From a virus, in the IMG/VR virus record IMGVR_UViG_3300031552_000001, positions 1 to 64,000 of that record: a DNA stretch of 64,000 nucleotides; one strand, 5' to 3'. Made by a program: the position numbers and the translations under genes. Shown piece after piece: positions 2,627 through 12,233 of this stretch (the first letter of the stretch is position 1; each line of letters starts with the position of its first letter). The notes under the pieces are model-generated. The model was not told the origin of the DNA and searched no databases. It saw only the letters and a list, made by a program, of their open reading frames with translations.

Positions 2627-3612
2627 ATCTTTAGAGCACTAAGAATGAGTGCTTACCTGACTGTCATGTACATTTGAGGTGTTAAACAAGTGCACCTACA
2701 CAAACCGCAAAACTTAGAGTGCTAGTTTAGAGCACTCGCATATCTCGCCAAAAGTTAGAACTTAGGGTGCCAGTTAAGAGCACTCGCAAGGCGCTCAATC
2801 ATAGGGGCTTTGCTCCTACACACCACAAAACGACGCACATACCTTTCGGTAATTGAAATAAGAGCTCTGACCGCAGGTAATCTTTAGGGCGTTAAGAAAG
2901 AACGCTTACACAACGTGAGTTATGACAATAGTAGGCCTCAAAGAGACACAAATGAAAGGAACTTAGAGTGCTAGTTAAGAACACTCGCCAGGTGACGAAA
3001 TCTAATGTTAGGTGCGTCAATCAAGAGCGCGCACGTCCTGCAGGTGATCGTCTTTGGGGCACTAAATAAGAGCGCCCACAAAAGAAGGCCGGCCTATAGT
3101 CTGCGTTTTCAGAAGCTTATGGTTCATCTTTGGAGTGTTAAGTGAGGGCACTCACAAGAGGTGCATCGGTTATTCTTTGGGGGGTTAAGTAAGGGCCTCC
3201 ACTTCGCATCTTGAAGACTAACTTTGGGAAGCTACGTACGAGTTTCCACACCACACCATCGAAATGCTAAGAAATAGCACTCACGTTTCATAGTAATTAA
3301 ATAGGATAAACCGGCGCGAACGACATTTGAAGAGGCAATAAAGGCCTCTTACCCGTAGCAAAGGCCCTGTTTGCAGAACAGCAACAAAGAGTTCTGACCC
3401 ATTCTGGGTCTGTGGGCCCATATAAAGAATTGAGAACAGTAGTAATATTTGAAGGGCCGAAATAAGGGTTCTTATACGACAACTCGAATTGTGTTTGGAG
3501 TGTTAAACAAGAGCACTCACAGCTTGCGTACGACTTGTATTTGGAGTGCTAAATAAGAGCACTCACAAGACGTAAAAGTTAGAACTTAGAGTACCAGTTT
3601 AGAGCGCTCGCA
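2627..3612 (+). ncRNA. array of about 18 degenerate hairpin units (consensus YHTTTG-GAGTGCT-AANNAAG-AGCACTC-AC), candidate structured ncRNA
   Basis: No long ORF; stems start at 2634, 2677, 2717, 2765, 2887, 2966, 3012, 3057, 3133, 3180, 3227, 3262, 3330, 3374, 3452, 3498, 3544, 3589; substitutions mostly keep pairing via G.U on the + strand. Confidence 0.75.
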
Positions 3613-3687: not shown

Positions 3688-4188
3688 GTGGAATTCGAAC
3701 TTTTAAAAGCGAAAAGCCGCCCGCCGGACACTACTGGGAGGTATTTCATTGGAGAGAAGTGCGCCTACTTTTCAAATGGAGTCGTATGGCTGAACTGCCT
3801 AATAGACTACGTGGACTCCGACAACGAACTGGTTATTCAAATAAACGGAGAACGGCCGCATCCGCAACATTGGCTATCTTATGTATTAGAGGACTGTTCA
3901 CTAGAGGAGCTGGCAGAATTTGAGGGTATAGGAGAGCAGTTCGAGTGGATGATGCGTAATGGAGTTGTTCCGTACCAAGCCTTTTTGTTGAAGCTGGAGT
4001 TTTATGCAGGCCCCAATGACGATGGCTGGGAAGTGACCTATAGCATAAAAGATAGAGAGCCTATAAGCGATAGCGAAGCGTCTAAAGCCATACTGGAGCT
4101 TCTCCTAGACAGAACGAGGGCCCTATGGGCCGACAGAAGTGCCGTCGTCGACATCTTCATGGCCGACTGCGGGGTAATTATACAGTAG
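3688..4188 (+). CDS. hypothetical protein
   Basis: 166-aa ORF with AGGAG SD. Confidence 0.65.
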   Translation: MEFELLKAKSRPPDTTGRYFIGEKCAYFSNGVVWLNCLIDYVDSDNELVIQINGERPHPQHWLSYVLEDCSLEELAEFEGIGEQFEWMMRNGVVPYQAFLLKLEFYAGPNDDGWEVTYSIKDREPISDSEASKAILELLLDRTRALWADRSAVVDIFMADCGVIIQ

Positions 4189-4285: not shown

Positions 4286-4498
4286 ATGAAAAACGCTGAT
4301 GAGATGAAGGAACTGTTGATGAGGTTAGGCGCCTCTTCTGTCTTCCTTACTAATACAAGTATGCCAACAGCAGCAAAAACTGTAGGTTTATTATGCTGGT
4401 TAAGGAGAACAAGAGAGAACAACGACACTAAAGAGCTAAGGCGCCAATTGCTATTCCTTCACATAACTGGGGGTTTTGACTACGAGGAGAGAAAGTGA
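4286..4498 (+). CDS. hypothetical protein
   Basis: 70-aa ORF, GGGGG SD, GTGA overlap with next gene. Confidence 0.5.
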   Translation: MKNADEMKELLMRLGASSVFLTNTSMPTAAKTVGLLCWLRRTRENNDTKELRRQLLFLHITGGFDYEERK

Positions 4499-5202
4499 AG
4501 CGAAAAAACACGTACCTCACGGTGGATTTAGACTACTGGGATGTTGCAAGGAGTCCATGTGCCAGGGGTGTAGTTAAGAGGGTGCTCGATTTGAACATCC
4601 CTACTTCTCTATTCTTAGACCATCACTTGGTGCTTCGTGATTTTAGTGGAAGAAGCGCCGAGTTTTCAAAACTTATTAACGTAGATCAACACGATGACCT
4701 GGCCGGAGATACGGCAGATCCACTGAATGAGGCGAATTGGGTTAATTATGTTCCCTTTCGCAAAAACGCGGTCTACGAATGGCGCTTTCCAAGGGAAGAG
4801 TTTGCATGCTGTGACGGACATGACGGAGGCTTTACGTGGTACTTGAATAGGAGATTTAGGGGGGCGTATAGCAGGGCTTTTCATCGGGATCATCGCTTAT
4901 CCGTTTGTGGGTGGAAGGAGATTAGACGCGTAGAAGGGCTTAGTAGGATTAACTACACGAAAATTGCTAAGGCGTCGTTCGTTTTGAGCCCCGCTTATGT
5001 GTCAGTAGAGAAGATACGACCCGCCTTGATGCTACTTGCTGAAGCTAAAGGCGACGTGACATGCTCGAAATACGTAAAGTCCGCTCTCAATCGTTTATTG
5101 AACGGGAGTCCAACACTATTTAAGCGCAGCATGTTATCTTACAGAAAAAGAGCTGACCCTAGTTGCAAGTGCGGCAGAGGGCAAAACTGGGCTAGTCAGT
5201 AG
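4495..5202 (+). CDS. UPF0489-like / arginase-deacetylase-fold putative metallohydrolase
   Basis: Motifs TVDLDYW, DHH, INVDQHDD, LNEANWV. Confidence 0.55.
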   Translation: MKRKNTYLTVDLDYWDVARSPCARGVVKRVLDLNIPTSLFLDHHLVLRDFSGRSAEFSKLINVDQHDDLAGDTADPLNEANWVNYVPFRKNAVYEWRFPREEFACCDGHDGGFTWYLNRRFRGAYSRAFHRDHRLSVCGWKEIRRVEGLSRINYTKIAKASFVLSPAYVSVEKIRPALMLLAEAKGDVTCSKYVKSALNRLLNGSPTLFKRSMLSYRKRADPSCKCGRGQNWASQ

Positions 5203-5267
5203 GAGTGTTGGCGGGACTATCTAAGAGTTCCGACGTGTTTCCCATGAGAACGAAATAGGAGAGGAGT

Positions 5268-9817: not shown

Positions 9818-9965
9818 ACACTCCCATCAAGGGACTCAGCCACCAGACGATACAGTTCTGACAATTACCTCTATGGAAGTGCCATAAGAGTTATGTAGAA
9901 CTGCGATTTTATACATTGGCAGGTGTCATTAAGACGCCTGACGAAGTCAAACCAGGAGTAGGGCT

Positions 9966-10325
9966 GTGGACAACAAGGAAATGAGAGCATTCGTTAACAG
10001 CGTCTTGTCTTGTTTTTCTGAGGAAGAGCTTGAGGCCGCTATGAAGGAGACTGACGACGAAAAGAGGTTAGATTTTTTCGTCAAGGGAGTAAACGCGTGG
10101 GTCACTAAACGTCTACAGGCGCTATTTCCTTGGGTAGAGCGCGTTGAAGTAGATAAGGTTTCCGGTGCCATAACAGTAGAGCACTCTTATCCAGAAGGGG
10201 TGAATATATCCTCTTATGTACGAGAGATTCTAGGAGAAAAACTACCGCAGGGCATACCCGTAGATATACGAGACGTAAGAGTGGCATCGTCCCACTTGAG
10301 CGAAAAAGTTGAGGAGGTTCCATGA
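9966..10325 (+). CDS. hypothetical protein, translationally coupled to the Cas12m-like gene
   Basis: AGGAG SD; ATGA overlap at 10322-10325. Confidence 0.6.
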   Translation: MDNKEMRAFVNSVLSCFSEEELEAAMKETDDEKRLDFFVKGVNAWVTKRLQALFPWVERVEVDKVSGAITVEHSYPEGVNISSYVREILGEKLPQGIPVDIRDVRVASSHLSEKVEEVP

Positions 10326-11818
10326 AAAGGAAGACCAGCTCTTTACCTAGCCGGACATATCGGTACCATGTGCGCTTGGACCGAAATGATGAAGCTGTAT
10401 TCGACCGGATAGGTGCCCAATGCAAGGAGTACTACGCTGCGTTGGTGAACATAGAGAACCAAAGAAGAGCCGCTACAGAAGAGTTCCTCATCCTCAAGTA
10501 CCCGACCTTTGCTTCTTTGAGGGAGGAAATGAGCGAGTTAGAGAAAAGAGTCAAGGAAAAGGGAGTAAGAAAAGCCCTTTTCGAAGTAGGGAAGTCTTTC
10601 TCCAAAATGCTAAAAGAGCTGGTGGCCAAAGAAGCGGAGAGTCTGAAGAAGTTCACTGCGGAAGCGGTTAGACAGAAGAAGATTATAAGGGCTAGGCTTT
10701 CTGGAGAAGGACTACCCTGGGGCTCGTATAGCAAAGTAGAAATGGCTTTTTTCGCTGCGTGTAGGAAAGGCGGAGCATTAACGTGTCGCGAGAAGGAAAC
10801 GGGAGAGTCTATTGCTGTTCAAATTCAATGTACCAAACCATGCACGGTAGACGGGCTACGGTCTGACAGAAGAATACAGATTTCTACGCCGCCAACTTCC
10901 GTTTGGAGTCTTAGCTGGGGAGAAAGGAAAAGAGCAGCAAGGACAGTAGGTAAAATAAGAATAGGAACACAACGACCAGGTAGAGAGCCTGTGTGGTTTC
11001 ATTTCGCGGTTACCTACCACAGACCTTTACCTGAAGACGCCACCTTAAAGTGGGCGTGGATAGGGAGATCTCCGAGGCATGGAAGAAGCACCTATCGGCG
11101 CTGTGTAGATAATAAAGAACGCTGGCGTAAAAGATACGAGTACTACCTTTACTTAACAGTAGAGTCTTCAGCGTTCATTTCTCCACTCAGAGCCCCCACA
11201 GGAAAAACAGCGGCAATAGACGTAGACGTAGAGGTAGAGAGCCATAAGGACGGCCGCCTATCCATAGGGGAGCTTACAGATAGTAATGAAAGAAGAGAGT
11301 CGATCTTCTTCAGTGAGCACCTCCTGAATAGATTTCAGAAGTGTGATGAGTTGCAGTCCATTCGGGACAAAAACCACAATAGACTTGTAGAAGATCTACG
11401 AGAAGTCGAAGAACTGCTCACAGCAGGGTTCAGAAAGTACCTACTGGGAGAAGAACATAGAATAAGCCATCTTCATCACCTAATAACCTATGAAACTTTG
11501 GAGAATAAGGAGCTTTCTGAGAAGCTGCACAAGTGGGCAAAACAAGACCGCCATTTGAACGCATGGAAGTCTGAACAACGGGCTAAGACCCTAAGACAGA
11601 GAAGAGAAAAATGGCAGTTGCTGGCTATCGAGTTGGCAGACTACTACGACGAGATAACTATAAGCGCTCCCGCCTCACTGACCGTAAGAGGGCACTGGGA
11701 TGGTAACTTTCAAAAGAAGTGTGCCGCTGCTGGAGAGTTTATAGACGTTCTTTCCTACCAAGCGTCGAAGAGAGGCTGCAAGATAGTAAAGGTGAAAAAG
11801 AATGTCACTGAAGGGTAA
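10322..11818 (+). CDS. Cas12m (type V-M/V-U1)/TnpB-like RNA-guided DNA-binding protein, predicted nuclease-dead, lacking the C-terminal Zn finger and RuvC-III
   Basis: Colinear motifs recalled from Cas12m: YYAALVNIENQRR, LPWGSYSKV, SIAVQIQ, PVWFHFAVTYHRPLPEDA, RuvC-I AAIDVD, DELQSIRD, WAKQDRHL...RAKTLRQRREKW, RuvC-II region ITISA without Glu, AAAGEF. Confidence 0.7.
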   Translation: MKRKTSSLPSRTYRYHVRLDRNDEAVFDRIGAQCKEYYAALVNIENQRRAATEEFLILKYPTFASLREEMSELEKRVKEKGVRKALFEVGKSFSKMLKELVAKEAESLKKFTAEAVRQKKIIRARLSGEGLPWGSYSKVEMAFFAACRKGGALTCREKETGESIAVQIQCTKPCTVDGLRSDRRIQISTPPTSVWSLSWGERKRAARTVGKIRIGTQRPGREPVWFHFAVTYHRPLPEDATLKWAWIGRSPRHGRSTYRRCVDNKERWRKRYEYYLYLTVESSAFISPLRAPTGKTAAIDVDVEVESHKDGRLSIGELTDSNERRESIFFSEHLLNRFQKCDELQSIRDKNHNRLVEDLREVEELLTAGFRKYLLGEEHRISHLHHLITYETLENKELSEKLHKWAKQDRHLNAWKSEQRAKTLRQRREKWQLLAIELADYYDEITISAPASLTVRGHWDGNFQKKCAAAGEFIDVLSYQASKRGCKIVKVKKNVTEG

Positions 11819-12092
11819 ACTACAATGTTGGTGGAAGAGAAGTCACGTAATAACAGAAGATATGACCACACAATCGCCGGTTCTATGCAAACGATGTGGG
11901 GTGAAGATTTATTACAAAAAGGAAGTGGTGCACCTGTTGCTTAAAGGAAAGCAATCAGCATGTGGCCTCACTACGGACGCTCTTCTTTCATGGCCTAAAG
12001 GGCATTGCTGGGTCGGCAAGTCTCAATGGGGGTATACTGAAGGATGCCTGCAATGTCCAAAGTGTGAAGAAGTTTACCGTAGTTCTAAATGA
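11802..12092 (+). CDS. small Zn-finger protein; possibly the detached C-terminal Zn-finger module of the Cas12m-like protein
   Basis: 17-nt overlap with the upstream gene in the +1 frame; CWWKRSH...SPVLCKRCGVKIY. Confidence 0.55.
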   Translation: MSLKGKLQCWWKRSHVITEDMTTQSPVLCKRCGVKIYYKKEVVHLLLKGKQSACGLTTDALLSWPKGHCWVGKSQWGYTEGCLQCPKCEEVYRSSK

Positions 12093-12108
12093 CCAGACTC
12101 TCATTCGG

Positions 12109-12147
12109 AGGGGACTATATTAAACTCTACCTTTAATATAGTCCCCT
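12109..12147. terminator. 16-bp perfect hairpin after the Cas12m-like operon (terminator or RNA scaffold)
   Basis: AGGGGACTATATTAAA-CTCTACC-TTTAATATAGTCCCCT followed by TCTTT. Confidence 0.55.
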
Positions 12148-12233
12148 TCTTTGCGCCATACTAACCCTACGTTTAATAAGAGGGCGAAAGTTTGTGCACC
12201 TAAACACTAGACAAGTATTTCAGGAGGTGGAAA

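Follow-up and report, generated by a model that had tools for sequence, protein, structure and literature searches.

The DNA analysed here, referred to as the window, comprises the first 64 kb (64,000 nt) of the 192,137-bp IMG/VR virus record IMGVR_UViG_3300031552_000001 (CheckV 100%), a tailed phage that encodes a sheath-like protein and has very few relatives in the databases. Near its left end, a stretch of 1.07 kb free of open reading frames (ORFs) separates an ORF with an XRE-type helix-turn-helix (HTH) domain (1840-2619) from a 166-aa ORF (3688-4188), all on the + strand. This stretch holds an array of hairpins at 2629-3611 (+ strand), which begins 10 nt after the stop of the XRE-type ORF. 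Further right, on the same strand, ORF 10322-11818 codes for a 498-aa protein that resembles Cas12m, the effector of type V-M systems of CRISPR (clusters of regularly interspaced short palindromic repeats). We argue that the hairpins are probably the scaffolds of a guide-RNA array related to these systems.

Counting degenerate copies, 17 recognisable units occupy the array, together with about 5-7 decayed ones and with gaps. Each unit consists of a 7-bp stem and a 7-nt loop, with TTTG on the 5' side and AC on the 3' side. A scan for 7/7/7 hairpins with TT[AG]...[AG]C flanks gave 13 strict matches within 2634-3544, compared with about one unrelated match per 8 kb, on either strand, in the remainder of the 192-kb genome. 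A covariance model built from the array units (R1, alignment A1) was then run on the whole genome; it recovered the array units and four solitary copies (1820-1847, 2149-2176, 5207-5234 and 9915-9942), with two weak additional matches inside the array (3368-3402 and 3446-3479). All matches lie on the + strand and within the first 10 kb, the best elsewhere having E = 0.1. The 21 units (17 in the array and four solitary) are thereby all on the strand of the effector gene. The hairpin array is real and far above chance, and both searches bear out the unit positions given by an earlier first-pass annotation of this DNA.

Canonical CRISPR arrays have near-identical, regularly spaced repeats and adjacent cas genes that include an adaptation module. 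Here, the repeats have a mean column identity of 68%, their spacing is irregular (35-168 nt) around a modal period of 43-48 nt, and 6.7 kb separate the array from the effector homologue, which is encoded on the same strand. The unit coordinates confirm the modal period proposed by the first-pass annotation, which had also predicted that the non-identity of the repeats would probably hide the array from ordinary CRISPR finders; Tandem Repeats Finder detected no repeats in it. A search of Rfam at E <= 1 returned no family for the array, and the promoter and terminator scan yielded nothing useful there, with no sigma-70-like promoters.

Pairing, pseudoknot and gaps of the units

The pairing statistics cover 20 units (140 stem cells) and were compared with 500 shuffles of the 3' arms. 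The units were partly chosen by pairing, which inflates the proportion of paired stem cells (92.9% of the 140, against 72.8% after shuffling; 0/500). Such selection does not account for stems that differ completely and still pair, as in the units starting at 3222, 3325, 5207 and 9915. Two-sided changes occur at all 7 stem pairs and amount to 30 cells, against 8.3 in the shuffles, and sliding the pairing partner as a control left 33-60% of the cells paired. The stems thus vary with their pairing kept by compensatory changes, as had been claimed from the sequence.

The pairing also shows a strand bias. The unit stems contain 19 G.T pairs and 8 A.C pairs, and the mean minimum free energy of single units is -7.8 kcal/mol on the + strand and -5.8 kcal/mol on the - strand (16/20 units; Wilcoxon p = 0.015), in agreement with the earlier proposal of G.U pairs that work on the + strand. 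The z-scores of whole-array folding (-3.3 on + and -2.0 on -) are dominated by inter-unit pairing and are uninformative.

Outside the stem arms, the fixed positions are the flank TTT and the G that follows it, positions 1, 6 and 7 of the loop, and the trailing A and C; the last C does not vary in any of the 20 units. The stem is closed by G..A in 14/20 units, by A..G in 4/20 (hereafter type 2) and by A..A in 2/20. The first-pass annotation had described these flanking purines as covarying. The four CTTA...GC units on which that claim rested are indeed present, but they are paralogues and represent one event, so that independent covariation does not follow. Its suggestion of a non-canonical G.A pair next to the stem agrees with the G(-23).A(-2) pair of the Cas12m2 structure. 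The flanks are asymmetric and the orientation of the units is constant, which argues against a double-stranded palindromic operator.

The units contain a further element that the first-pass annotation had missed. Three bases of the 5' flank (usually CUU) pair with loop bases 1-3 (usually AAG) in a 3-bp pseudoknot, and one unpaired U separates the flank strand of this pseudoknot from the closing G. Pairing in this helix amounts to 85%, compared with 67% after shuffling (0/500), and one of its pairs is CG in 8 units, AU in 6, GC in 1 and GU in 1. Flank and loop of the type-2 units have changed jointly, these four paralogues counting again as one event. The pseudoknot has the same register in PmCas12m, in Cas12m2 and in 28 viral arrays.

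This anatomy can be compared with crRNAs (CRISPR RNAs) that were defined experimentally. The Cas12m2 crRNA has a flipped-out base and then G(-23), in a non-canonical pair with A(-2); a 6-bp stem with an 8-nt loop comes next, and C(-1) stands ahead of the guide, of which only 17 nt pair with the target DNA (PMC10442227). In all eight Cas12m crRNAs used by Bigelyte et al., the guide is preceded by G-stem-loop-stem-AC (PMC11013384 Table S5). For PmCas12m, pairing joins the first loop bases to three bases of the 5' flank; the cut in the pre-crRNA falls at guide position 17-18, and the mature form measures ~33 + 17 nt, with 17 nt as the optimal guide length (preprint 10.64898/2026.03.26.714355). 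The window units have the purine-purine G.A closing pair, the single C before the putative guide, and a stem that is held by pairing and free in sequence, as stems also vary among orthologous arrays. The 5' part of the 36-nt repeat is missing from them, and upstream of the 3-nt pseudoknot strand they show no conservation. In its layout, the window unit is isomorphic with the Cas12m crRNA scaffold as defined by experiment.

The eleven short gaps between units measure 15, 12, 20, 18, 17, 19, 19, 7, 17, 18 and 17 nt (median 17-18), and the array gaps are unique apart from one duplicated 11-nt stretch. The length of the short gaps matches that of functional Cas12m guides (~17 effective nt), although the guide role itself is putative. 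The array reads as back-to-back crRNAs of mature size with a period of 43-48 nt, whereas a canonical array of 36-nt repeats and ~36-nt spacers has a period of 72-73 nt.

The units differ in their state of preservation along the array. The first (2629-2656) has an A.A closing pair and is followed by 15 nt, the second (2672-2699) by 12 nt. Units 3 (2712-2739) and 4 (2760-2787) are of type 2 (CTTA...GC, loop AGTTWAG), and a 94-nt gap separates the latter from unit 5 (2882-2909). Unit 6 (2961-2988), again of type 2, has an 18-nt gap after it and unit 7 (3007-3034) a 17-nt gap; unit 8 (3052-3079) comes next, and unit 9 (3128-3155) precedes a 19-nt gap, as does unit 10 (3175-3202), which has three G.U pairs. 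The stem of unit 11 (3222-3249) is wholly unlike the consensus and paired at every position, unit 12 (3257-3284) is degenerate with 5/7 pairs, and unit 13 (3325-3352), whose stem is also wholly unlike the consensus and perfect, is followed by a 94-nt gap that contains the weak R1 match at 3368-3402. Unit 14 (3447-3475) has one extra loop base and AT in place of AC. Units 15 (3493-3520) and 16 (3539-3566), the latter with the top model score, are followed by 18 and 17 nt, respectively, and unit 17 (3584-3611) is a degenerate type-2 copy.

Several structures lie in the longer gaps: a hairpin of 7 bp with a 3-nt loop after unit 4 (2802-2818), another of 6 bp with a 3-nt loop at ~3391-3405, and GC-only palindromes of 8 bp at ~3087 and 6 bp at ~3411. 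Two half units, at ~2848-2866 and ~3383-3398, keep the loop end, a variant of the 3' arm and GAC, with no matching 5' arm, and are probably decayed units. An identical 13-nt stretch precedes two type-2 units (2750-2762 before the unit at 2760 and 3574-3586 before that at 3584), which points to a segmental duplication inside the array.

The Cas12m-like protein and the arrays of its relatives

The protein of ORF 10322-11818 (+ strand, 498 aa), which the first-pass annotation had named as one of three possible partners of the hairpins, is Cas12m-like by both sequence and predicted fold. In a phmmer search of the PDB sequences it matched one chain, Cas12m 23vw_A (E 7.6e-10, effector residues 64-447). 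With its AlphaFold2 model (pLDDT 78), the top four Foldseek matches were the cryo-electron microscopy structures 8hhl, 8hio, 8pm4 and 8hhm of Cas12m2/Cas12m (E 1e-17 to 1e-20), trailed by Cas12f and TnpB (E 1e-8). Its relatives in a collection of 5.8 billion proteins have 552-655 aa and a Cas12f1-like TNB domain; the exhaustive search gave 1142 cluster representatives at E <= 1e-3, none of them above 32% identity to the window protein. The latter keeps the Asp of RuvC-I, has Ser in place of the Glu of RuvC-II, and ends before the Zn ribbon and RuvC-III. Its similarity to PF07282 covers only positions 2-27 of the 60 of the model, and the complete RuvC domain with a Zn-ribbon (TNB) insertion is absent. 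Without the RuvC-II Glu, RuvC-III and Zn ribbon, the 498-aa protein is predicted to be unable to cut DNA.

We examined 50-odd relatives of the effector in viral and metagenomic contigs and found that most are followed by arrays built in the same way. An IMG/VR profile search gave 43 viral contigs (L031-L073) that encode a relative, and about 29 of the 43 have an adjacent array on the same strand. In L019, L021/L022, L023, L025 and L193, a gene-free stretch directly after the relative's gene, on the same strand, is full of G-stem-loop-stem-AC units. Flank and loop covary in their pseudoknot across 28 distinct arrays, flanks that end in GCC, GGGCT or CCCC being matched by complementary loop starts. 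These arrays, the scaffold match and the Cas12m-like protein together support the type V crRNA-like layout that the first-pass annotation had read in the units.

Most of the relatives' arrays are regular, with a period of 72-73 nt, but some are not. The spacing in L038/L039 ranges over 43-92 nt, with several versions of the stem, the array of L025 has 16 stem versions, and the L019 units agree with those of the window in their 7-bp stem, 7-nt loop and TTG...AC frame. Four separate arrays with a period of 46-56 nt lie on the one contig L021 (11737-12230, 13764-, 14380- and 16039-). The window array stands at the extreme of this continuum: the most divergent in sequence, unlinked from its effector and accompanied by the shortest effector. 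R1 had no match in any locus that encodes an effector relative; the likeness to their arrays is therefore architectural and does not extend to the sequence. More generally, R1 had no match beyond its own genome in the viral, metagenome and relative loci searched, and the exact consensus unit was found in no viral contig. Searches for related loci through the XRE-type ORF, the 166-aa ORF and a helicase returned none, or one irrelevant locus.

Some features of these loci are of interest in themselves. The array at 11977-12890 of L038 (identical in L039) follows a relative of 646 aa, and its closing pair seems to be U-A and not G.A. The relative in L021, around which the four arrays of this contig lie, has 577 aa and matches the solved Cas12m 23vw_A with E 4e-75. 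Single scaffold units without an array occur in L029 (5784-5812), 26 nt past the relative's stop codon, and in L194 (4622-4646), 5.4 kb upstream of the relative; the L194 unit has an A-rich loop and a CTT/AAG pseudoknot, as in the window units. A degenerate two-unit pattern was found at 15 loci in viral contigs and at at least 119 in metagenome contigs; none of the 15 and none of the 80 metagenome loci listed fits R1, and we attribute these matches to chance.

A probable guide array and its alternatives

Having observed the anatomy of the units, their covariation and strand bias, the protein's homology and the link between its family and arrays, we consider it likely that the array is an adaptation-free, hard-wired guide array of a relative of type V-M (Cas12m) systems, used for RNA-guided DNA binding. 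The phage may thus carry ~20 fixed guides for this purpose. The ~28-nt unit would be a minimal Cas12m-type crRNA scaffold, made of a 3-nt pseudoknot strand, an unpaired U, a G closing against A, a 7-bp stem of free sequence and a final C, and the 12-20 nt after each unit (median 17-18) would be its guide. The + strand would be transcribed along with the left-end block of + strand genes, and the transcript would be cut into scaffold-plus-guide RNAs by the effector or by host RNases; crRNA processing by Cas12m is independent of RuvC (PMC11013384). The resulting RNAs would load onto the 498-aa protein, which would bind matching DNA adjacent to a PAM (protospacer-adjacent motif) and block transcription or replication, like the characterised Cas12m proteins. 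The targets would be genes of the host or competing elements. No cas1, cas2 or cas4 was noted in Pfam, PHROGs and NCBIfam scans of some window ORFs, a result that does not come from a dedicated search. Together with the segmental duplication and with the five long gaps that contain decayed units, this indicates that the array evolved by duplication and drift under selection for structure.

The proposed system resembles the type V-M systems (MmCas12m, Cas12m2, GoCas12m and PmCas12m) in the pseudoknot, unpaired base, G.A pair, hairpin and final C of its scaffold. The putative guides are also 3' of the scaffold, with ~17 effective nt and no need for a trans-activating crRNA, and the effector is similar in sequence and fold, with DNA binding without cutting predicted for the window protein. 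It differs in that the repeats are not near-identical, each having its own covarying stem; of the usual 36-nt repeat, the 5' third is missing. The spacers have mature length from the outset (median 17-18 nt, instead of ~36), the array is distant from the effector gene, and neither the Zn ribbon nor RuvC-III is present in the effector.

Cas12m systems are well characterised, and one case is known from a myxophage, MV-1, whose Cas12m was presented as the first in a phage (preprint 10.64898/2026.09.14.751636). The 43 IMG/VR viral contigs with relatives, ~29 of them with arrays, suggest that phage-borne Cas12m-type systems are in fact common. Like the window, MV-1 has a phage-borne Cas12m-type effector, no adaptation genes (in the window, among the ORFs scanned) and no targets found; unlike it, MV-1 has an effector of 610 aa in which the D-E-D triad is intact, and next to it a regular array whose 8 spacers are set between copies of one consensus repeat (preprint 10.64898/2026.09.14.751636). 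The irregular arrays of L038/L039, L021, L025 and L019 share with the window array the protein family, variant stems that pair, spacing down to 43-56 nt and the G...AC frame. They differ by lying directly after a full-length effector gene and by having a recognisable consensus repeat, whereas the window array is more divergent and unlinked, with a loop and pseudoknot rich in A/U.

Another comparison is with TldR, which Wiegand et al. are said to have described in 2024 as TnpB-like nuclease-dead repressors, RuvC-inactivated and C-terminally shortened, that are found on mobile elements. They reportedly use short hard-wired guides for transcriptional repression and not for immunity, with a single long omega-type guide RNA encoded beside the gene. 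The window effector is likewise a RuvC-inactivated, C-terminally shortened protein of the TnpB/Cas12 lineage on a mobile element, and its proposed guides are short and hard-wired. Unlike TldR, the window has a multi-unit array of short crRNA-type scaffolds and a protein that is nearest to Cas12m.

More tentatively, and with rather less than even confidence, we propose that a CRISPR array has become a fixed collection of ~20 mature-sized guide genes, with neither adaptation nor repeat identity. These guides would program a form of Cas12m that is truncated and nuclease-dead, making it a multiplex transcription repressor that silences host genes or rival elements. The upkeep of the scaffold by structure alone would also guard the array from recombinational collapse. 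The effector would be expressed from the left-end gene block of the phage, and the solitary units in untranslated regions, including the leader of the effector operon, would be single guides or autoregulatory binding sites.

A number of results weigh against a working guide array. The effector gene is not adjacent to the array but 6.7 kb from it, and the effector is the most truncated member of the family that we saw. It may be incompetent, because the missing Zn ribbon and last RuvC segment both contact the crRNA in Cas12m. The five long gaps suggest that ~5-7 units have decayed, and the duplicated 11-nt stretch leaves only 7-10 unique nt in the two gaps that precede type-2 units. When the guides were compared with the phage's own genome, only chance-level 11-14-mers were found, in numbers equal to expectation. 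Two 19-nt guides had no exact match in viral contigs, a scan of low power at 17-20 nt, and no protospacer was found in the phage database, such scans of collections being weak for guides of 17-20 nt. A close relative of the genome that carries the array was not found in viral, metagenome or protein searches.

The array region had no match in the phage collection by blastn, and at E <= 10 only three chance matches of 26-38 nt; the arrays of two effector relatives had no protospacers in the same collection. The first 11 nt after the unit at 2760 recur at positions 103114, 105230 and 149504 of the genome (beyond the window), inside coding regions. Since the counts of guide prefixes equal expectation, this threefold recurrence is probably an effect of codon usage.

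The truncation of the effector and the loss of its RuvC-II Glu, together with the irregular spacing, the degenerate units at 3257, 3447 and 3584, the half units in long gaps and the absence of targets in the genome, viral-contig and phage-database searches, could also be those of a relic, i.e., a former Cas12m array and a pseudogenised effector that are both decaying and unused. We regard this as unlikely. Neutral decay breaks pairs, yet stems that differ at up to 7/7 positions keep 93% pairing with 30 two-sided cells, the flank/loop pseudoknot covaries, and the last C and the flanks are invariant. The effector has remained open for 498 codons with a confidently predicted fold, and nuclease activity is unnecessary for Cas12m function (PMC11013384).

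The structure of the units might instead be kept for binding alone. The hairpins would then be an RNA anti-CRISPR or sponge for a Cas12m-type effector of the host, or a buffer for the phage's own protein, and the gaps would not be guides. Phages reportedly use RNA anti-CRISPRs built from repeat mimics, and Camara-Wilpert et al. are said to have described, in 2023, phage copies of host CRISPR repeats, some of them solitary, without a cognate effector. The many scaffold copies in one putative transcript, the solitary units in untranslated regions and the gaps that are too short or too long to be guides are in line with such a decoy. However, the short gaps cluster at 17-19 nt, the length of functional Cas12m guides, which a decoy does not need. 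Unlike the RNA anti-CRISPRs, the phage encodes its own matching Cas12m-like effector alongside gaps of guide length, and the relatives of this effector carry ordinary arrays with unique spacers. This makes a decoy quite improbable.

A function at the level of DNA seems very improbable. An HTH protein is encoded just upstream, and 7-7-7 inverted repeats have the size typical of dimeric HTH sites, as would be expected of palindromic operators for the XRE-type protein; hairpin or cruciform elements of a promoter or origin belong to the same group of explanations. Yet the half-sites vary while their complementarity stays, the excess of G.T over A.C pairs (19 against 8) and the folding favour the + strand, and the flanks and loop are asymmetric in one orientation throughout. 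The flank/loop pairing is sensible only in a single strand, and the array has no sigma-70-like promoters.

Least probable of all is another kind of RNA, either a ToxI-like type III antitoxin for the 166-aa ORF or a CsrB/CrcZ-like sponge: the array does stand directly upstream of the small ORF 3688-4188 and its loops are A-rich, but it has no Rfam match at E <= 1, the 166-aa ORF has no match in Pfam, PHROGs or NCBIfam (ToxN-type families included), the loops lack GGA motifs, and the window repeats are not near-identical, whereas ToxI-type repeats are known as near-identical pseudoknot units and not as covarying hairpins. The sponge and antitoxin readings, which the first-pass annotation had kept as alternatives, and the XRE-operator reading, which it had named as a possible refutation, gain no support from these results.

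What is new here, relative to the characterised Cas12m systems and the regular array of the myxophage, is an array that falls outside the definition of CRISPR (its repeats are not identical, its period is irregular and repeat finders do not see it) but retains the structural features of the Cas12m scaffold with putative guides of mature length, and its co-occurrence with a Cas12m derivative devoid of Zn ribbon and RuvC-III. A working array would be an example of how much a CRISPR array can depart from the textbook form and still serve an effector: the units have in common just ~28 nt of structure, a covarying stem and a handful of fixed bases, and the spacers are pre-trimmed to 17-19 nt. It would then be a natural case of multiplexed CRISPR interference by a phage, intermediate between the adaptive immunity of type V-M and TnpB-derived repressors with a single guide, such as TldR. 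Standard CRISPR finders overlook such arrays, and RNA-guided systems of phages and plasmids are therefore probably under-counted. The variation among the 21 units amounts to a natural mutational scan of the scaffold, which separates the positions that the protein would read (the flank U and G, three loop bases, and the final A and C) from those that matter only for pairing. It is of direct use in the design of minimal, non-repetitive guide arrays for Cas12m.

Solitary units and neighbouring ORFs

The four solitary units are all on the + strand. That at 1820-1847 is intergenic, ahead of the XRE-type ORF, and that at 2149-2176 is within this annotated ORF, in a low-complexity linker. The unit at 5207-5234 is intergenic and follows ORF 4495-5202, and that at 9915-9942 is 24 nt ahead of ORF 9966-10325. 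The XRE-type ORF (1840-2619, + strand), a possible regulator of the array, could be composite, with a Cys-rich N-terminal part, a Lys/Arg-rich linker, in which the unit at 2149-2176 sits, and the HTH domain from ~residue 148. If so, the units at 1820 and 2149 may flank a small separate gene.

On either side of the effector gene, small ORFs overlap its ends. ORF 9966-10325 (+ strand, 119 aa) overlaps the start, and the ORFs that overlap the genes of the effector relatives on their upstream side are not homologous to it. ORF 11802-12092 (96 aa), in another frame, overlaps the last 17 nt of the effector gene and contains two CxxC pairs; the idea that it supplies the missing Zn ribbon or C-terminus was not supported by BLASTP and hhalign. 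Downstream of it lies a strong terminator-like hairpin (12105-12150).

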